64,000 nt of DNA, from the IMG/VR virus record IMGVR_UViG_3300023198_001252, positions 6,320 through 70,319 of that record. One strand, 5' to 3'. The notes beneath the pieces were generated by a model that saw only the letters and a list, made by a program, of their open reading frames with translations, was not told the DNA's origin and made no database searches. The stretch comes from a virus. Below are positions 5,136-52,476 of the stretch, in pieces; the first letter of the stretch is position 1, and every line of letters starts with the position of its first letter. The translations under genes were made by a program, and so were the position numbers.

Positions 5136-5158
5136 GATTTTTAAAAAAACTAATCTCT

Positions 5159-5218
5159 TATATAAAATCAGACTCGAACTAATATAGCCAGCCATCTAAC
5201 CAATTAAGTTACTTATTT
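5159..5218 (-). ncRNA. tRNA-like element lacking an anticodon arm
   Basis: TA-ACTT-AATTGGTTAGA D-loop motif; ATTAG-TTCGAGT-CTGAT T-arm; 6/7 bp acceptor stem; only ~11 nt between D and T arms; no CCA. Confidence 0.55.
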
Positions 5219-5313
5219 CCGAGATTAGTAATTAACAATTTTTTTACAATGCTATGAACTAGATACTGTAAAAAAATGGGAATATTACTTTTCATCTTCC
5301 CCTTTTTATATAC

Positions 5314-5581: not shown

Positions 5582-5669
5582 TCGACTTTTTAATTTTAAT
5601 TTAGTATTATATTATTAATAAGAGCTTGTAAGGGGTTACAAGCAAAAACAAACTTAAAGGAGTTACACG
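5582..5669 (+). promoter_or_regulatory. early promoter + conserved leader palindrome + RBS
   Basis: TCGACT-17-TATTAT, then GCTTGTAA-GGGG-TTACAAGC (5624-5643), then AAACTTAAAGGAGTTAC. Confidence 0.75.
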
Positions 5670-7395: not shown

Positions 7396-7674
7396 ATGAC
7401 TATAACAAAACTAAAAGATTATAAAATTACAGGGTATATAGAACACCCAGGAAAGAACATAATAGAGATTGCTGTAATAGCAAGTATTTGGAGTGATAGT
7501 TTTATTATTCTATCAAGCAATTATTATATATGTGAATCTATAAGAACAATCAGATCCATAGATTCACATATAGCTTTAATCGATTATGCATGGAAATATG
7601 AACACAAAAAAGTTATATTACATAATCCTGAAATACTAGAAGAAATCAAAGAGTATATAAAAAGTATGAAGTAG
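7396..7674 (+). CDS. hypothetical protein; its stop codon is the first 3 nt of the inserted mini-element
   Basis: Ends ...KSMK-TAG, with TAG at 7672-7674. Confidence 0.65.
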   Translation: MTITKLKDYKITGYIEHPGKNIIEIAVIASIWSDSFIILSSNYYICESIRTIRSIDSHIALIDYAWKYEHKKVILHNPEILEEIKEYIKSMK

Positions 7675-7978
7675 ATTGAACAAAAGTATTGACTTTTATA
7701 AAAAAGTTAGGAATATCGTATATAAATATGAGAAAGAAAATATCAACTTATGCAAAAGAAAACAATTTATCTTATATTTTTGTGACTGTGGGTTAGAAAT
7801 TGATAGAGATTTAAATGCGTCTATAAATATTTGTAATGAATATTTTAAAAATAATTCGGTGGAGTACATCGAATACAATCATGGAGAAACAATAAATCCT
7901 TGTAAAATTATTTATAATTTTTCAGGTAGTTTTAGTGAAGTGATTACCGAAAGTATTAACATTTGTTAAAACTTTTAG
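7672..7978 (+). mobile_element. 307-bp internally deleted IS607-type element (left end + tnpA start joined to tnpB end + right end)
   Basis: ATG 7728 encodes MRKKISTYAKENNLSY (IS607 TnpA-like HTH start), joined at TAT to the TnpB tail FCDCGLEIDRDLNASINI; near-identical to 12999..13303; boundaries inferred. Confidence 0.75.
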
Positions 7979-10122: not shown

Positions 10123-10593
10123 ATGATGGATTTAAACGCAACAGATAATAAAAATATTTTAAAATTACAAAAATATAAAGCAATGGATCATCTTATTTTT
10201 GATGGTCGTTCTTTTAAATCATTAGAGAGATTAAAAGAGCATAAATTAGTAAAAATAGAAACAGCATATAATTGTAGTACTAAAAAGAATATACCTACTT
10301 TTTTTGTCACTTTAACAGAGAAAGGACTACAATATAAAAAGTTTCATAAAAATAAAACTATAATAAAATTAAATAAGCTTACAGCAGAAGCTGCTGTAAA
10401 TTGGAGATACTACAAAAGATTTAAAAAGTACGGTCTATATAAAATTATAAACATACTTACAAAAGAAGAGATAAAAGAAATAGGTATATATTTTGAATCG
10501 AGCAAAAAACTATTTAATCATATAAAATATATTTGGTATAAGAACAGAAAAGGCCTTACTAGTGATAGAAAAGAAAATAAAGAAATATTCTAA
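10123..10593 (+). CDS. hypothetical basic protein
   Basis: AAGGAG RBS; the 3' end overlaps the truncated tnpB. Confidence 0.65.
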   Translation: MMDLNATDNKNILKLQKYKAMDHLIFDGRSFKSLERLKEHKLVKIETAYNCSTKKNIPTFFVTLTEKGLQYKKFHKNKTIIKLNKLTAEAAVNWRYYKRFKKYGLYKIINILTKEEIKEIGIYFESSKKLFNHIKYIWYKNRKGLTSDRKENKEIF

Positions 10594-11158
10594 AATATTT
10601 GCAAGAAAACAAAAAGACAGTAAAAGGAGAGAAAAGTTTAGGGTAAAACTAGCAAGACTTTATGAGTATAAGAATAATTTTTTAAATCATTTTCATTGGA
10701 ATTTAGTACACAAACTGACTAGTGAGAACAAAGCTATATCAATTGAAAATTTAAATATTTCAGGGATGATTAAAAATAAAAGGCTATCACACTCTATTCA
10801 TTATTCTAATTTTGGAGGTTTTATTGATAAATTAGAACAAAAAGCGAATGACTATGATACAATTATTTATAAAGTTGGTAGATTTTATCCAAGCTCAAAA
10901 TTATGTTCAAAATGCGGAAATAAAAAAGATGATTTAAAATTATCGGATAGAATATATTTTTGTGACTGTGGGTTAGAAATTGATAGAGATTTAAATGCGT
11001 CTATAAATATTTGTAATGAATATTTTAAAAATAATTCGGTGGAGTACATCGAATACAATCATGGAGAAACAATAAATCCTTGTAAAATTATTTATAATTT
11101 TTCAGGTAGTTTTAGTGAAGTGATTACCGAAAGTTTTAACATTTGTTAAAACTTTTAG
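10562..11158 (+). pseudogene. tnpB: 5'-truncated tnpB (bridge helix, RuvC-II, Zn ribbon, RuvC-III) with right end
   Basis: ISIENLNISGM, YPSSKLCSKCG, DRDLNASINI; no RuvC-I DxG upstream (in-frame stop at 10520); 3' ~210 nt near-identical to both mini-elements. Confidence 0.85.
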
Positions 11159-12998: not shown

Positions 12999-13303
12999 TA
13001 GATTGAACAAAAGTATTGCCTTTTACTACAAATAGGAATATCATATATAAATATGAGAAAGAAAATATCAACTTATGCAAAAGAAAACAATTTATCTTAT
13101 ATTTTTGTGACTGTGGGTTAGAAATTGATAGAGATTTAAATGCGTCTATAAATATTTGTAATGAATATTTTAAAAATAATTCGGTGGAGTACATCGAATA
13201 CAATCATGGAGAAACAATAAATCCTTGTAAAATTATTTATAATTTTTCAGGTAGTTTTAGTGAAGTGATTACCGAAAGTATTAACATTTGTTAAAACTTT
13301 TAG
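12999..13303 (+). mobile_element. 305-bp internally deleted IS607-type element, second copy
   Basis: Same tnpA-start/tnpB-end junction as 7672..7978; differs only near the left end. Confidence 0.75.
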
Positions 13304-35349: not shown

Positions 35350-35398
35350 TTTAATAACCTCTTGTATATCTAATTAAAATAAAATTTAAAACAATGTT

Positions 35399-35427
35399 TT
35401 GACTTTTTAATTTTAATTTAGTATTAT
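35399..35427 (+). promoter_or_regulatory. phage-type promoter driving an ncRNA
   Basis: TTGACT-17-TATTAT; spacer TTTTAATTTTAATTTAG identical to that of the 5582 promoter. Confidence 0.75.
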
Positions 35428-35431
35428 ATTA

Positions 35432-35564
35432 CCATACGTATTTTAAAATACGTATGGGTTGGTTCTACAACCTTAAGGTGAGATGGATTACTTTTTAAAA
35501 GTAATTATACTCACTAATCTGTACAATAAGTACAGAAATAGAACAGGCCTATAATACTATTAGA
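35432..35564 (+). ncRNA. orphan Cas12f/TnpB-type fused guide RNA (scaffold 35432-35544, guide from 35545)
   Basis: Shares CCTTAAGGTGAGATGG and TACTCACTAATCT with the tracr-like RNA near 49.1 kb; compensatory stem and pseudoknot changes. Confidence 0.75.
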
Positions 35565-35603
35565 CCTTATTCTTAAAGGGTTTTCTAGTGTTTTTACATT
35601 TTA

Positions 35604-36614
35604 TTAACTTATAGCTAGATTTGTTATACTAGAATGTAATTTTTCGTTCGCCCAATCAATGCCAATTTGGCCATATACCTGTCTTTTTTCAGAAGCACCG
35701 GATTTATCCATTGGTTCATCAAATAATCTACCTTTTCCCGGTACAGTACAAAATACAGGTTTAACAAGATTTAAAGCTGCAAGTAATATAGTACTAGTTG
35801 GAACCATTGATTCATATACCACTCCAACCTCACCAAAATCAGTAAGAATAGTTCTTACATCTACACCACCAACATTCCATGATTCAGGCTGGTAGCCATA
35901 AATACTTGATATTGCTTGTTTTTGAAATGAGTTCATAAATAAAATAGGTGTATTTTGATAAGTTTGACCACCGGAAGTATCTACTGCAAGTTTAAACATT
36001 GCTTGTAAAATACCCCTGTCTAAAGCTGCACCACCGGCAGCAATTGTAGAAGTTGTAATACCTGGAATAATTCCACCGGTTTGTGCTGCTACTGTGTTAG
36101 AAGTAGATTCAACAAATGTACCATTAAGGAAAGTATAATTCATATCTCTTGCAATTTTTTTTAAAGTATATGCTAAATTTTTAGCTTCTAATGCTGCTTG
36201 GTTATTCACATTTTCTTGAGCCCAATAACCTACACCTGTATGTACAACATCCGTGGCTCTACGTTCAGTAGTAGATAATTTCTTATATGAAATATCAATA
36301 GCCTCCTGAACAATTTGACAAGTGTTTCTAATTTGTGTGTATATTGGGGAGGTTGCTGCTGGTGCTGTGTTAGCAGCACTTTCTGAAATTGAAGGTTGTG
36401 CTGCTGCTGGAAAATCATATTCTGCTGTCATTGCAAAATCAAAATCTGCAACTTCTCTTGCATTACCCCCATTTAGCCCACCTAGCATTGTTAAAAAAGG
36501 TGTACCTGTTCCCTGTCCGGGTGTCACGTCTGCTGTCCAAAGATCCCCATCATAATTAGGAGAATTCCAATAATCTGCTTGTCCTGATACTTGTGCCATA
36601 AAAATAGCCTCCAT
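35604..36614 (-). CDS. major capsid protein
   Basis: TPFLTMLGG...NTCQIVQEAIDIS...KIARDMNYTFLNG...QVYGQIG; 336 aa, after the scaffold gene. Confidence 0.85.
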   Translation of the reverse strand: MEAIFMAQVSGQADYWNSPNYDGDLWTADVTPGQGTGTPFLTMLGGLNGGNAREVADFDFAMTAEYDFPAAAQPSISESAANTAPAATSPIYTQIRNTCQIVQEAIDISYKKLSTTERRATDVVHTGVGYWAQENVNNQAALEAKNLAYTLKKIARDMNYTFLNGTFVESTSNTVAAQTGGIIPGITTSTIAAGGAALDRGILQAMFKLAVDTSGGQTYQNTPILFMNSFQKQAISSIYGYQPESWNVGGVDVRTILTDFGEVGVVYESMVPTSTILLAALNLVKPVFCTVPGKGRLFDEPMDKSGASEKRQVYGQIGIDWANEKLHSSITNLAIS

Positions 36615-46293: not shown

Positions 46294-48864
46294 TTATCCT
46301 ACACTATGCTTTATACTTTTTTGTATCATTGGTCTATGCAGTAATCTATAGCCCGATTCATCCGCACAATTAGATACTACTATTCCGTGTTCTATACAAA
46401 ATCTTTCATGTGTAGGAACTGTTAAACAATATACATCCTCATTAGATATGCTTTCTCTTTTTATCAAATGTACTAAATTTTGTTTATTTTTTTTTAATTT
46501 AACTAAGAAGAATTTATCTTCTTTTATTCTAATTGCATCGGCTCTTATCCATTTCTGACCTGTATAAAATAAATGGTCTGGTGTACATTTAATTCTCATA
46601 CCATCAGAAAAATATAATTTTATAACTTTTTTATTTTCCCCTACTAGTCTACAATTTCTATATTTTTGATAACCGCTATCTGTTAATACTTTACCCTTTG
46701 TATTTACTAAATCTTTTATAGCAATTTTACCTTTAGTAGTAATTACTTTAGTGTCCCCTGTAAAGCAGTGGTCTTCTTCATCTGTGTTTGAAACTAAAAT
46801 ATTATTTGCGTAATACAATCCTGCTTTTTCGGTTACAAGATTGTAAACCGTTTTTTTATCTTTTATATTTTCAATACTAGTTATACTTATATTTTTAATA
46901 CTCACATTATAACATTTATCAGAATATAGTTTAAAAAAATCATCAGTGATATTATCTTTATATTCTTTAGATATATTCACAATTCTTATCTTCTCTATAA
47001 TCTCTATTATTTCATTACGTGCTACTTTTTTATTTTTTTTATTTAATAGAATATCTTTGTCTAAATAAGATGAAAATAAAATAAAAGGAATTGTAGCAAA
47101 AACACTTAAATAATTAATATTCAACTTATAAGCCAACATACTTTTTGATTTATTCCATTGTACTTTTTCTAGTGTACTATTTATTTTTAAATCCTTTAAC
47201 GCTATTAACCCTTTTCCCGGAACATGTATCTTATGATTTGGTGTACCTTCTAAACTTTCACCATTTGAAAAAGTTACTTTTATTGTTTTACTCATTCCAC
47301 TGCAAATCGATTTTTTAACTTTACATAATCCTATTGGAGTATAAACTAAATCCTTTTTTGTAACATCTTCAATATTTTTAAGTTCTTTTTCAGTTTGAAC
47401 TTTGGTACCGGCAATAAAACAATTAATATCATCAGGATCTTTGTCATCTCTTCCCAATATTGGAACAGTTCTAATAAAAGCTTTACAATCTTCTGTAACA
47501 AATAATCCAGGATCCTCCATTGGGAATTTTAAAGCATCTTTAAACATTGTCCGCATTTTTTCCCATCTTCTCTTCCTACTACCAGGAGATTTATCAGCTT
47601 TTACAAAAATATGATTAGTTCTAGTATTTCCATAACCTTCATTAAGTAATTCAGCTATACTATCATTTTTATGATCTGCGTCAAATATAGAAGAGTCTCC
47701 AGGGCCAGGATTTATTTTAATAATATTAAATGCTTTTTTAATGTGTTGCTCTATTTTTTGAATACCTCTACCTATTTCTTTAGATGTTAATCTCAATCCT
47801 TTATTTTCTAGATTTGGTTGACAGCCATACCATTCCCAAAATCTAATTAATGTACCTTTTGGAAATGTTTTTTGTGCTAATTTTTCTATATAAGATCCAT
47901 CTAATTGTTTAATTTTATATATAATCGAAATAGGAGATCCATCTGTCATAGCCCAATAGCCTACAGAAAAAGGCTTCGATTGTCCATAGTCGAAAGACCT
48001 ATCTATGTACCAGGTATTAGGTATATTTATTCTAGGTAAAATGTGTACTTCTTTATCCCATACATCATCAAACATGCCACCAGCTACAATATCCCATGAA
48101 CCTTCAATCCATGCTTTCCTTATATTTGGATTTTTATTTTGTTCTAAATTTATCTCATACTCAGGATCATTATCTATAAATATTTTATTCTCAGATCTAC
48201 TACTATGTATGTAACAACGTTCACGAATCATTTCTTTTTTTGTGTTAGGGTTTTCTAACTTTTCTTCTATTACTTCACATGATTGATTTTCCGTTATTTT
48301 AAATCTTTTTTTAACCCAAAAATGCCCTTTTCCCCATGGATTACAAGTAGATCTAATCATTTTAGGTATCTCAGGATGTGAGGATCTGCAAATAGAAAAC
48401 ATCATGAGATATAACTCGTCTGTTCTCCAATTAGTTAATTCTTCCCAGCCGATAAAAGGATATGCATGTCCATGATAATTCCAATAATCATCAAGCCTGT
48501 TTGCATATCTAAAATAAAGTACCTCACCTTTTGGAAAAGTCCATTTATAATCAGAAGAATTAAATATCGCTTTTGGAAAAATTTGTTTAAACCACTTTAA
48601 ACTTTTTATCTTTATATCTTCTAAATTTTTATACGTTTCTCGAAAAATTATACCACGCCATTCAGCGCCATAACCTTTCCCAACATGCTGTAAGAAATTC
48701 ATTAAAAGTGCATCGGATTTTCCACCTGACCTATTCCCTTCTACTAGTACTTCAAATATAGGGCATTGTAGTAATAGGTCTTGAGCACCGGGATTAGGTT
48801 GCCAAATAACATTAATTTCTTTATTTAGTGTAGTATTATTATTCATTGATTTGTAATATAACAC
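46294..48864 (-). CDS. terL: terminase large subunit containing two inteins
   Basis: Walker A-like GNRSGGKS, Walker B-like IGWEEL, RSTCNP, RNase H DRSFDYG; two Hint insertions near the C-terminus. Confidence 0.9.
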   Translation of the reverse strand: MLYYKSMNNNTTLNKEINVIWQPNPGAQDLLLQCPIFEVLVEGNRSGGKSDALLMNFLQHVGKGYGAEWRGIIFRETYKNLEDIKIKSLKWFKQIFPKAIFNSSDYKWTFPKGEVLYFRYANRLDDYWNYHGHAYPFIGWEELTNWRTDELYLMMFSICRSSHPEIPKMIRSTCNPWGKGHFWVKKRFKITENQSCEVIEEKLENPNTKKEMIRERCYIHSSRSENKIFIDNDPEYEINLEQNKNPNIRKAWIEGSWDIVAGGMFDDVWDKEVHILPRINIPNTWYIDRSFDYGQSKPFSVGYWAMTDGSPISIIYKIKQLDGSYIEKLAQKTFPKGTLIRFWEWYGCQPNLENKGLRLTSKEIGRGIQKIEQHIKKAFNIIKINPGPGDSSIFDADHKNDSIAELLNEGYGNTRTNHIFVKADKSPGSRKRRWEKMRTMFKDALKFPMEDPGLFVTEDCKAFIRTVPILGRDDKDPDDINCFIAGTKVQTEKELKNIEDVTKKDLVYTPIGLCKVKKSICSGMSKTIKVTFSNGESLEGTPNHKIHVPGKGLIALKDLKINSTLEKVQWNKSKSMLAYKLNINYLSVFATIPFILFSSYLDKDILLNKKNKKVARNEIIEIIEKIRIVNISKEYKDNITDDFFKLYSDKCYNVSIKNISITSIENIKDKKTVYNLVTEKAGLYYANNILVSNTDEEDHCFTGDTKVITTKGKIAIKDLVNTKGKVLTDSGYQKYRNCRLVGENKKVIKLYFSDGMRIKCTPDHLFYTGQKWIRADAIRIKEDKFFLVKLKKNKQNLVHLIKRESISNEDVYCLTVPTHERFCIEHGIVVSNCADESGYRLLHRPMIQKSIKHSVG
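46369..46767 (-). other. mini-intein 2 in TerL (133 aa)
   Basis: CFTGDTKV...IKCTPDHLF...VYCLTVPTHERFCIEHGIVVSN / +1 Cys. Confidence 0.85.
46786..47421 (-). other. intein 1 in TerL (212 aa)
   Basis: CFIAGTKV...LEGTPNHKI...VYNLVTEKAGLYYANNILVSN / +1 Thr. Confidence 0.85.
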
Positions 48865-48895
48865 AATATTTTATTAATTGCAAGTATGAGATTTT

Positions 48896-48932
48896 GTTTC
48901 AATCCTTATTTTATCGTATTAGCTACTTCACC
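48896..48932 (-). CRISPR. single 37-nt CRISPR-type repeat with leader-like upstream sequence
   Basis: GGTGAAGTAGCTAATACGATAAAATAAGGATTGAAAC; its 3' half pairs with AATCTTATTTTAT in the nearby tracr-like RNA. Confidence 0.65.
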
Positions 48933-49071
48933 CCTTTTTGACACTTTTCCGCACACTTTTGATATGTAAAAACATGAGAAAAACGCTAAATAATTACAAA
49001 TACGGCTTGATATAACATTTCGGTTTTTACCGAACTCAAAAATCACCTATAGCAATATTTCGGTTTTTACT

Positions 49072-49160
49072 AAACATAAAATAAGATTAGTGAGTACAAT
49101 TCTTTCGATACCATCTCACCTTAAGGACGTAAAACCGCCCCACATGTATACAACATGTTT
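49072..49160 (-). ncRNA. tracrRNA-like scaffold of the Cas12f-like locus
   Basis: Stem GGGCG/CGTCC with GTTTTA loop, GTGAG/CTCAC stem, anti-repeat at 49088-49076. Confidence 0.7.
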
Positions 49161-49199
49161 ATTACGTGAAAATTCTTTTACACCCCCTTTGACAATAAT

Positions 49200-49275
49200 G
49201 ATTATTCACTTGTTACGTTTCAATCATTATTTTCTATGTATAGTACTTGTTTGTTTCAATCTTTACTCTCTACAA
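49200..49275 (-). CRISPR. two degenerate repeat handles ending GATTGAAAC, 36 nt apart
   Basis: GTTTCAATC on the + strand at 49217 and 49253. Confidence 0.5.
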
Positions 49276-49280
49276 TAATA

Positions 49281-49309
49281 ATTGTAGCAAAATCAGTATA
49301 ATAAGTCAA
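49281..49309 (-). promoter_or_regulatory. promoter for the ncRNA region
   Basis: TTGACT-17-TACAAT immediately after the Cas12f-like stop. Confidence 0.7.
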
Positions 49310-49324
49310 GTATTATTTTAATTA

Positions 49325-50516
49325 TTATACAACCTTCACCGACTGAGCAATATTAACAGCAGCGTTATAATCTCGATCAAGTTCCTCATTACATTCAGGG
49401 CATATATATTTCCTGTCACTTATTTTAATTTCCTTATTGATAAATCCACACTTATTACATGTTTTTGTAGTATTTTTAGGATTAACATATACAGTAGCTA
49501 TCCCATTCATTTTAGCTTTATACTCAATGTAACTTTGTAATTCATAATAAGTCCAATTCCTTCTAACCCATTCATTCTTTTTATCCGGCATTTTTTCAAT
49601 TAAACTCAATTTTTCAAGTTTAATAATCCTGGCTTTATGCCTTAATGCAAATTTTATAATTTCACAACTTACTCGATGGTTTACTGTTTTTACAAAATTA
49701 CGTTCTTTGTTTTTAAATTTTTCAATTACTTTTGTTTTCTTTTTTCGGCCTTTGCCTCCATGTGCAATTTTTATGTTTCTTTGCATTTGCTTTAACTGTT
49801 TTTGTAGACGTTGTCTAGTAATATAATAACTTTCATTATTATTCTTATGTCCTCCAATAAATGCACGTTGTAGCCCCTTAGATAATGCACAAACTGCTAA
49901 TGTAGAGATTCCAATATCTACACCTACGCTTAATGTAGAATCTAGTTTATTAGGTGTAACTGGAATATCTACACAAAGATTAAGGAACCATTTATTTTTA
50001 GTTTTATGATGTTGGATAGAAGAGCCACACGCTTTATAGTTACCTTCTATGATTTGTTCTATAATGTACTGGTTATTTGATTTATCCCTTCCAAACTTTA
50101 AATTAAATTTAATCTTTTCTTGCCATTTTAAATGTATTTCTTTATCTATTTGTATAAAAGGTTTACCTTCTTTTGTAAATGGAAAATAAATAGGAAATCC
50201 AAGCCTTCTATAATTTCTTAAACTTCTATCACCTCTTAAAATTTCTTTTATGTCTGCTTTAAATTGCCCTTGAATATTTTGAGCAATACAAGCTCTTATA
50301 GCTGTTTGATATTTTATAGGAAATATTCTGTGCTGAACCTGAATTATATAAAGACTTTACATAATCATTTATAATTTTTTTATCTTCTTCAACATTTTCT
50401 TTTATTTTATTTGTTAATTTTAAATTCATATATAAATCAGACATAATCCCATTCGCTAATGTATATGAATTATAAGATAAATCATGTAATCTTTTATGGT
50501 AACTATATATATTCAT
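49325..50516 (-). pseudogene. Cas12f-like / TnpB nuclease in three reading-frame pieces
   Basis: Joined translation: FKADIKEILRGDRSLRNYR, FGRDKSNN, KNKWFLNL, RuvC-I VGVDIG, RuvC-II IKLEKL, WTYYELQSYIEYKA, TTKTCNKCG, RuvC-III DRDYNAAVNIA; frameshifts near 50312 and 49823. Confidence 0.85.
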
Positions 50517-51570: not shown

Positions 51571-52476
51571 ATGTTTGATTTGTTAAAATTTGAGAGTATA
51601 TTACAGTTAATAGAAGCTTTCCCAACTGAATTAAGTTGTTATATCTACTTAGAATCTCTTTTATGGTATGATGGGATTGTATGTCCTCATTGTGGATCTA
51701 CTCATAAGTTTTGGAGACTCAAAGATCAAAGAATGCTTAAATGTTCAGTATGTAAAATGAGGTTTACAGTTAAAACCGGTACTGTATTTGAAGAAACTCG
51801 TTTATCACTTCGTAAATGGTTTGTAGCTATCTTTTTAATCAGTGTACATTCTAAAGGCATTTCAAGCGTTCAATTATCAAAGGATTTAAGAATTACACAA
51901 AAAACAGCATGGTTTTTAAATCATAGAATTCGTTTCATAATGAACTCATTTAATGAAGGTGAAAAATTAACCGGTATTATCGAAGTTGATGAACATTATG
52001 CCGGTGGAGTTGAAAAGAATAAACACACAGACAAAAAGACACCCAATAATCAAGGCCGTTCTACAAAGACTAAAACTGCCGTATTTGGTATGGTTGAAAG
52101 AGCGGAAAAAGACGAAAGTGGTAATAAAATAAAAAATGCAAAAGTAATTGCTTATAAAGTTGATAATGTAAAGACTAAAACCTTAACCAATGAAATTGAA
52201 AACAATGTAGAAGCTGGCGCAAAAGTAATGAGTGACGAATATCAAAGTTACCGAAAATTAGGCTATACTTTTAAACACCAATATATAAGACATAACAGTG
52301 CTGAATACGTAAGAGGAAATGTACACACAAACACAATAGAGGGATTTTGGGGACTGTTTAAGAGGATGTTTATAGGTATCTATCATTTAATGAGTAATAA
52401 GCATATAAACCGCTATTTATCAGCTTTAGCCTTTAGGTATAATATTATCATCCTTATTTTCTTATACCTTACCTAG
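51571..52476 (+). mobile_element. IS1595-family transposase, probably 3'-clipped
   Basis: Zn ribbon CPHCG...CSVC, IIEVDEHY, VMSDEY, HTNTIEGFW, RYL...FRYN then unrelated sequence. Confidence 0.85.

Follow-up and report, generated by a model that had tools for sequence, protein, structure and literature searches.

Natural chimeric and stand-alone guide RNAs, tracr-fused arrays and orphan chimeric gRNAs have already been described. Stand-alone omegaRNAs, known from OMEGA (TnpB/IscB) systems (Altae-Tran et al. 2021, summarised in PMC10691335), are reported to act in trans, and both omegaRNA arrays and tracr sequences re-fused with a half repeat are known (PMC10691335). dCas12f systems use single chimeric gRNAs and include an orphan gRNA (PMC12259090). 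In the dCas12f-sigmaE systems of that study, which are named 'Sigma-TnpB' in PMC10691335, orphan copies act in trans, and the effectors are nuclease-dead transcription activators found on Bacteroidetes chromosomes. A pseudoknot between the tracrRNA and the repeat 3′ end is general for Cas12 (bioRxiv 10.1101/2025.01.20.633832), and TranC systems are transposon-CRISPR intermediates (PMC13565253).

Here we analyze a stretch of 64,000 nucleotides (the window) that corresponds to bases 6320-70319 of a 75,033-bp IMG/VR virus record, the completeness of which is estimated by CheckV at 74%. As judged from sequence comparison, a 254-bp gap between two minus-strand late genes (35350-35603) probably holds a gene that stands alone and encodes a guide RNA, naturally fused (chimeric), for a Cas12f-clade nuclease carried by phages. 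This RNA, which we call the orphan, stands out because it occurs in a phage, has a resident promoter of its own, has been trimmed naturally to an extreme degree and lies far from the nuclease gene.

Like the stand-alone omegaRNAs of OMEGA systems, the orphan consists of a scaffold and a guide without an adjacent effector, an effector-type locus is present elsewhere in the genome, and the guide is flanking DNA. Unlike them, it resides in a phage, begins at position +1 of a resident phage promoter and has neither transposon ends nor an accompanying transposase in the record, and its effector relative belongs to the Cas12f clade and is decayed. As in the dCas12f-sigmaE gRNAs, tracr and half repeat are collapsed into one Cas12f-lineage RNA that keeps the repeat 3′ end, although the present nuclease gene keeps the RuvC D/E/D residues, and the orphan lies among phage late genes and has no evident regulatory target. 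With Cas12f (type V-F) the locus shares a protein family match (E 1e-124 to 1e-81 for Al3Cas12f, RhCas12f, OsCas12f and AsCas12f; PMC13186708), and with Cas12f RNAs it shares the pseudoknot of a 5′ loop with the last repeat bases. The orphan differs from Cas12f loci in being remote from the nuclease and in having no array at the site. A truncated repeat:anti-repeat duplex under a short loop is also a feature of engineered Cas12f sgRNAs, but in the orphan fusion and trimming are natural and the scaffold is about 112 nt. The resemblance to TranC is that fused guides and repeat-spacer units occur together in one lineage; LaTranC (PDB 9jfo) is a distant match to the profile of the nuclease homologs (E 1e-10). 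For Cas9, tracr-L, reportedly presented by Workman et al. in 2021, is said to be a natural single guide that is autoregulatory and matches a promoter in part. The orphan is likewise a natural single-guide form of a dual-RNA system, but it goes with another effector family, and no promoter-type target was found for it.

Organization of the putative orphan guide RNA gene

The upstream neighbor of the orphan is the major capsid gene (35604-36614, minus strand; SU10_MCP, E 2e-47), with a scaffolding-like gene before it, and a 137-aa ORF lies downstream of the gap. The stop codon of the nuclease gene (49325) is 13.8 kb away, on the opposite strand. BLAST against GenBank phages with the gap, or with 5 kb around it, gave no match, IMG/VR yielded no relatives of the capsid protein, and a cassette-free capsid junction in a related phage was found neither by the GenBank phage BLAST nor by the IMG/VR capsid search.

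Table 1. Features of the orphan, the 49-kb RNA locus and the nuclease gene, in window coordinates
Feature	Position	Strand	Comment
Predicted sigma-70-type promoter TTGACT-17-TATTAT	35399-35427	+	10/12 consensus positions; repeated phage promoter family
Stem 0, 5′ hairpin, perfect palindrome CCATACGTATTTT/AAAATACGTATGG abutting stem 1	35432-35457	+	
Stem 1 GGTTG/CAACC with 6-nt loop GTTCTA (35462-35467)	35457-35472	+	Alignment A3, covariation test
Stem 2, family-invariant GGTGAG...CTCACT helix around hairpin ATTACTTTT/AAAAGTAAT	35477-35515	+	
Collapsed anti-repeat:repeat hairpin TCTGTAC-AATAA-GTACAGA, 7 bp, 5-nt loop	35518-35536	+	
Pseudoknot partner TAGAAC, 6/6 complementary to stem-1 loop GTTCTA	35539-35544	+	
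Predicted guide segment AGGCCTATAATACTATTAGA...	35545-35579	+	Position from family architecture; length probably 16-35 nt
Second scaffold copy, downstream of nuclease gene	49083-49162	-	39.8 bits, E 1.9e-9
Parts of 49-kb copy: stem 0 ACATGT/ACATGT, stem 1 GGGCG/CGTCC, loop GTTTTA, GTGAG stem			
37-nt repeat homolog	48896-48932	-	ATAAAATAAGG pairs with anti-repeat TCTTATTTTAT (49076-49086)
Predicted guide of 49-kb RNA AAAATCTCATACTTGCAATT	48876-48895	-	Flanking DNA; overlaps -35 box of terminase promoter
Predicted promoter TTGACT-17-TACAAT, TG extension	49281-49309	-	Between nuclease stop codon and RNA locus
R1 and R2, two 20-nt repeat 3′ ends, each ending GATTGAAAC	49217-49272	-	Upstream of scaffold
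Decayed Cas12f-clade nuclease gene	49325-50516	-	5′-truncated, split over two frames, RuvC D/E/D retained

A sequence-only reading of this DNA had described a promoter and a fused guide RNA at 35399-35564 on the plus strand, and each feature that it listed is found there (Table 1). The shared blocks, the stem-1 covariation, the loop pairing and the CTGTAC-AATAA-GTACAG junction (35519-35535) are all present. So is the identity with an early promoter, which extends over a stretch of 31 nt (GACTTTTTAATTTTAATTTAGTATTATATTA). The same stretch at 5584-5614 heads a plus-strand operon that encodes RNA ligase, primase and Dam methylase, and promoters of this type occur in at least six other places in the genome. 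Two blocks are common to the orphan and the 49-kb locus: CCTTAAGGTGAGATGG, at 35471-35486 (plus strand) and 49111-49126 (minus strand), for which 0.02 chance matches are expected, and TACTCACTAATCT, at 35508-35520 (plus strand) and 49084-49096 (minus strand).

Folding of the RNA from 35431 to 35564 gives -42 kcal/mol (z = -6.1). The helix that lies between the core and the pseudoknot partner is present in the orphan as TCTGTAC/GTACAGA, and the resulting closing hairpin is the shortest in the family, in which loops range from 5 to 271 nt. Its 3′ arm aligns with the 3′ half of the CRISPR repeats beside the closest nuclease homolog (locus L011, below) and with the window repeat R3. Only the 3′ end of a repeat is found at the 35-kb site, with no array.

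A search of the window and of seven related loci against Rfam gave no match at the gathering score of any family, and relaxing the threshold to E 10 gave only chance-level matches; this search excludes RAGATH-18 and other curated Rfam families as the identity of the scaffold. The exact 16-mer block had one match in IMG/VR, which was unrelated and of high GC.

A conserved and covarying architecture

Homologs of the nuclease, 400-490 aa in length, are abundant, and we gathered 160 further nuclease loci. The closest homolog, a 433-aa protein at L011, is 55% identical and is followed by a promoter-like TTGACA box (identified by eye), five 37-nt CRISPR repeats and a scaffold like that of the orphan (GGGGTG-GTTCTA-CATCC ... 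GGTGAG ... CTCACTAA, the next bases of which pair with the repeat). In L011 the loop GTTCTA pairs with the repeat end TAGAAC, and this loop/repeat-end pair is the same as in the orphan. Locus L013 is organized much like L011. A simple pattern detected the core in about 45 of the 160 loci, on the nuclease strand every time, and a covariance model detected 158 copies, distributed over 80 viral loci, and these too all lie on the nuclease strand.

For recognition independent of the window, a covariance model (model R2) was built from RNAs beside homologous nucleases in other phages, with the window sequences left out. When run on the 75-kb record, this model found exactly two copies, the orphan (37.9 bits, E 7.2e-9, at 35435-35521 on the plus strand) and the 49-kb copy, and the next best match had an E of 0.04. 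The core that it recognized in the orphan comprises stem 1, the GTGAG/CTCAC stem and the CTAA linker.

The conserved plan starts with a 5′ hairpin and stem 1, continues with the GTGAG/CTCAC stem and a closing hairpin, and ends in six loop-complementary bases and the guide. All 59 non-identical copies that were parsed follow one plan: stem 1 with a loop X, the GTGAG stem, TAA, a hairpin with a loop of 5-271 nt, a spacer of one to three bases, the reverse complement of X and then variable sequence. In a 21-sequence core alignment, 98% of the stem-1 cells are paired and 5/6 pairs show compensatory changes. The observed covariation score was matched in 0/500 shuffles, and slid controls gave 26-46% pairing. 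The GTGAG/CTCAC stem is invariant, and a stem 0 hairpin, the sequence of which differs between members, lies 0-2 nt before stem 1 in 19/21 of them.

The stem-1 loop covaries with the six bases that precede the guide over 15 loop sequences, among them ATCCTA/TAGGAC, ATTCGA/TCGAAC, ATTCAG/CTGAAC, ATTTGG/CCAAAC, ACTTTG/CAAAGC, GGCTTA/TAAGAC and GTTTTG/CAAAAC. When tails were reassigned among elements, 0/5000 permutations matched the observed pairing, and the outcome was the same with one representative per distinct loop. Homologs thus do not lose the pairing of loop and 3′ end, a loss that the sequence-only reading had named as evidence against its proposal. Within the window, the orphan and the 49-kb copy likewise show compensatory changes, both in stem 1 and in the pseudoknot (C-G versus T-A), and in each copy the 5′ part fits its own 3′ part. 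The conserved architecture and the covariation of stem 1 and pseudoknot together support the proposed fused guide RNA with a guide that starts at 35545.

In a genome of only 24-30% GC short matches are common, and AT-rich intergenic hairpins could in principle resemble the 49-kb locus by chance. We regard this explanation as refuted: an independently built model recognizes the orphan (E 7e-9), the exact 16-mer has an expectation of 0.02, order, spacing and pairings are all conserved, and the covariation tests on stem 1 and the pseudoknot point the same way.

It is also conceivable that the element is an exapted part of the capsid operon, acting without any nuclease as a terminator, attenuator or mRNA stabilizer on one strand or the other, or from the plus strand as an antisense regulator. 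Its position is immediately 3′ of a late gene that is highly expressed, the minus strand folds well too (z = -5.0), and a plus-strand RNA would be antisense to the capsid 3′ end. Nevertheless, no T run follows the minus-strand hairpins, the conserved features are strand-specific (158/158 model matches fall on the nuclease strand), and covariation between loop and 3′ end would serve nothing in a terminator. We therefore consider a nuclease-independent role very improbable.

The 49-kb RNA locus

The second scaffold copy forms an equivalent pseudoknot, in which TGAAAC (48896-48901) pairs with the loop GTTTTA. The 37-nt repeat homolog in which this hexamer lies aligns over its whole length with the L011 CRISPR repeat. 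The TCTTATTTTAT/ATAAAATAAGG helix, of 11 bp, closes a loop of 161 nt and is followed by ATTGAAAC and then by DNA upstream of the terminase gene. Between promoter and scaffold, where relatives such as L011 have a CRISPR array, lie the two repeat ends R1 and R2, 36 nt apart, each of which can pair at 8/10 positions with the anti-repeat. The locus thus contains one full 37-nt repeat homolog and two 20-nt ends, and an array of at least two full repeats is absent.

With its 161-nt loop, pseudoknot partner and guide, the 49-kb RNA can be read as one fused RNA, like those of relatives with loops of 120-270 nt. Because a full-length CRISPR-repeat homolog is present and two repeat ends lie upstream of the scaffold, the locus may also operate in a dual-RNA mode. 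The earlier suggestion that a single genome carries both a fused and a split form of the scaffold is therefore unnecessary, as the 49-kb RNA can itself close as a fused RNA. Nor would such a combination be special. In the gut-phage relatives L119, L126, L120 and L134 (about 1600-2500 in each locus), two scaffold-array units lie upstream of the nuclease, and the closing helix and pseudoknot partner of the scaffold are supplied by the first 36-nt repeat of the array. With the tracr fused in this way to the first array repeat, fused and split forms together are the family norm. The spacers of these arrays are ~30 nt long and vary from phage to phage. These relatives also have a third scaffold downstream of the nuclease, and a trailer spacer is common to 13 phages; a search with this spacer returned 13 matches, all of them arrays, and no protospacer.

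Two further observations concern this region. A small hairpin unit, GGTAAAAACCGAAAT, occurs twice, 40 nt apart, at 49014-49081 (minus strand) within the 161-nt loop, and one of the two scores as terminator-like. The large terminase gene (46294-48864, minus strand) has intein (Hint) domain matches, and its promoter (48883-48855) shares bases with the guide of the 49-kb RNA.

The nuclease gene is decayed

The nuclease gene encodes OrfB_IS605 and Cas12f1-like TNB domains and is placed by NCBIfam in the general RNA-guided TnpB family. Comparison with solved structures, which included PDB 9nzo, 9nzp, 8j12 and 7wju, showed that the label 'Cas12f-like' given to it earlier is right. A profile of its homologs matches Al3Cas12f (9nzo, E 1.5e-124), 8hr5 (E 6e-122), RhCas12f (9nzp, E 1e-98), and OsCas12f and AsCas12f (about E 1e-81 to 1e-83), and the match to ISDra2 TnpB is far weaker (E 6e-14).

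Despite this match to Cas12f structures, the window does not encode an intact Cas12f effector. Judged against P0001 and other close homologs, the gene has no counterpart of residues 1-21, which include a conserved M-I-x-T-R-K-I strand. The ATG at 50516 comes after a stop codon and directly adjoins the terminator of the KilA-N gene; no obvious Shine-Dalgarno sequence was seen upstream of it by eye, and there is no room for a promoter upstream of the gene. Between '..NISYKI' and 'IRA..' in the next frame there are 10 nt where homologs have 9-11 codons; this out-of-frame deletion has removed a conserved (L/I)PS segment, and no start codon occurs in the downstream frame over 190 codons. With ~21 first codons missing in addition to the out-of-frame deletion, the nuclease is not one frameshift away from function, as had been assumed. 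Recent decay is suggested by the open frame of 343 codons that remains, with its RuvC D/E/D residues intact.

No second nuclease copy was found in the record, which is 74% complete, and the record had no match to Cas1, the adaptation module; V-F systems frequently lack Cas1 (PMC10691335). Since the only cognate nuclease gene is decayed, the orphan RNA must rely on a nuclease that is encoded elsewhere or else be a relic that was orphaned recently, alternatives to which we give roughly even odds. The chance that the RNA is still used is, in our estimate, roughly one half.

A third cassette and remote guide genes in a related phage

A third, degraded cassette lies 1.7 kb before the start of the window (G000:C1:4573-4646, minus strand, equivalent to L002:1482-1555, minus strand). 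Its promoter and stem 0, which are like those of the orphan, are joined directly to TAAGTACAGAAATAGAAC, followed by the ribosome-binding site and ATG of a 346-aa ORF that has no Pfam match. From its sequence, this cassette looks like a guide RNA gene cut down by deletion to a promoter and 5′UTR. The short form is read as the deletion derivative because the missing hairpin arm and loop pair with bases that the short copy retains. The converse, insertion of a 73-nt scaffold into a pre-existing promoter/5′UTR like that at G000:4573-4646, was rejected because the hairpin arm and loop pair with the shared flank. The homology between third cassette and orphan stops within one base of the predicted border between scaffold and guide, which provides independent support for a functional boundary at 35544/35545.

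The same boundary, together with the identity of the guide to flanking DNA and the presence in the genome of mini-elements of another TnpB family, would also fit the right-end fragment of an IS200/IS605- or IS607-type element, that is, a miniature non-autonomous transposon with the 'guide' as its insertion flank. No empty site was identified. We consider this origin improbable. The 74%-complete record contains no match to Y1 transposase (PF01797) or serine resolvase (PF00239), the orphan has no recognizable left end, the cassette begins at +1 of a resident phage promoter, and the closest relatives are not transposons but Cas12f-type loci associated with CRISPR.

As a rule, scaffolds of this family lie beside the nuclease gene and on its strand, and the orphan does neither. 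The same exception occurs in G003, the whole record of locus L165, a related phage of 174,896 bp and 99% completeness. It has a single nuclease gene, intact with an open frame of 560 aa, and two extra compact scaffold copies that lie 55 kb from the nuclease on the other strand (L192:2000-2870, equivalent to G003:C1:125500-126370, plus strand). These have closing hairpins of 6-9 bp, the partner TGGAA for the loop ATTCCA and a guide of about 20 nt, which in the first gene is followed by a hairpin and T run that resemble an intrinsic terminator by eye. Both genes follow duplicated 3′ ends of genes and have a homing-endonuclease-like ORF nearby, and neither guide has a second site within the G003 genome. 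In five other large records, copies occur only near nucleases or in ambiguous places. Taken with the G003 case, this indicates that remote guide genes are uncommon but recurrent.

These comparisons bear on whether the cassette, the 49-kb RNA and the nuclease are the inert remains of a decaying selfish system of Cas12f/TnpB type, with the orphan having no present function. The nuclease is truncated and frame-broken, the third cassette is already down to a promoter and the scaffold 3′ end, a second, unrelated TnpB remnant with mini-elements is present in the genome, and the guide found no target in the window, the genome or IMG/VR. On the other hand, the helices and pseudoknot of the orphan are all perfect, and its promoter fits the family consensus. 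The two copies have diverged yet kept their pairings, which indicates long selection on each. In addition, the record is only 74% complete, and G003 has remote guide genes alongside an intact nuclease. An inert relic is, in our view, less likely than not.

Guide sequence and candidate targets

The guide of the orphan consists of DNA that flanks the capsid gene 3′ end. Allowing up to 3 mismatches, it matched only itself in the window, and the genome contained no second match. A search of viruses and species genomes gave no convincing match: in IMG/VR and 185,579 species genomes, an 18-mer of the guide had one viral and four MAG matches, in unrelated taxa, which we judged to be at chance level. 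A single one of these, located in a SusC-like gene from a Flavobacteriaceae MAG, extends to 21 nt.

Ten bases of the guide (35550-35559, TATAATACTA) match, in reverse complement, the -10 region of its own promoter family (35419-35428). A self-regulatory role for this complementarity was considered and rejected, since such a match is at chance level in AT-rich DNA and lies outside the PAM-proximal seed.

Discussion

How might a stand-alone guide RNA gene of this kind work? From the comparisons above we infer that the phage promoter, of the type that heads the replication-gene operon, would start transcription near 35434, although the RNA would then be made against the direction of the late operon, a point against this reading. 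The predicted fold of the RNA begins with stem 0 and stem 1, continues with the GTGAG/CTCAC stem and ends in what is left of the anti-repeat:repeat duplex, a helix of 7 bp. TAGAAC, the last six bases of the scaffold, would pair with the stem-1 loop to form the pseudoknot, and the guide would begin at 35545. A Cas12f-type nuclease would then bind the RNA in trans and cut DNA that contains the guide sequence beside a PAM. As the guide is cassette-flanking DNA, cutting of cassette-free alleles is the most likely use. The targets may be such alleles in related co-infecting phages, resulting in homing or marker exclusion, and the phage's own copy would presumably be spared, since the repeat end occupies the PAM position. 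Homing would fit both TnpB homing and the free-standing homing endonucleases of phages (PMC13565253).

A broader possibility, which we put forward as speculative and rather unlikely, is that this lineage places promoter-driven, minimized single-guide genes beside essential late genes (capsid, terminase), remote from one nuclease, as RNA-guided counterparts of free-standing homing endonucleases. Cassette-free co-infecting relatives would be cut and converted, and neighboring genes would be dragged along. In a bolder variant, a phage without a nuclease might keep guides to exploit the nuclease of a co-infecting phage or of the host. The orphan, the remote guides of G003 and the tracr-fused arrays of the gut-phage relatives point to dispersed guide genes served by one small nuclease, possibly in homing or in phage-phage competition.

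If the orphan RNA is active, it would represent a naturally trimmed single guide of ~112 nt for a Cas12f-clade nuclease of ~400 residues. Its duplex would have been pared by evolution to 7 bp and a pentaloop, providing comparative data for the design of miniature editors. If it is a relic, the locus records an order of decay in which the nuclease went first and the scaffold next, with the promoter left.

Several other features of this DNA were observed. A tRNA/tmRNA scan called none; a T-arm-like sequence, GTTCGAGTC, is present in a tRNA-like context at 5150-5230 (minus strand), where ARAGORN calls no tRNA. An IS1595-family transposase gene (51571-52476, plus strand), with DDE_Tnp_IS1595 and zinc ribbon domains, adjoins a KilA-N gene and the nuclease remnant and adds a further mobile element to this region. 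The second, unrelated TnpB family is represented at 7672-7978, 12999-13303 and 10562-11158 (plus strand) and comprises a C-terminal TnpB remnant of 195 aa, which NCBIfam classes as IS200/IS605-like, and two mini-elements of ~306 bp that share the last ~210 nt of the remnant. ATACTAT follows all three right ends.
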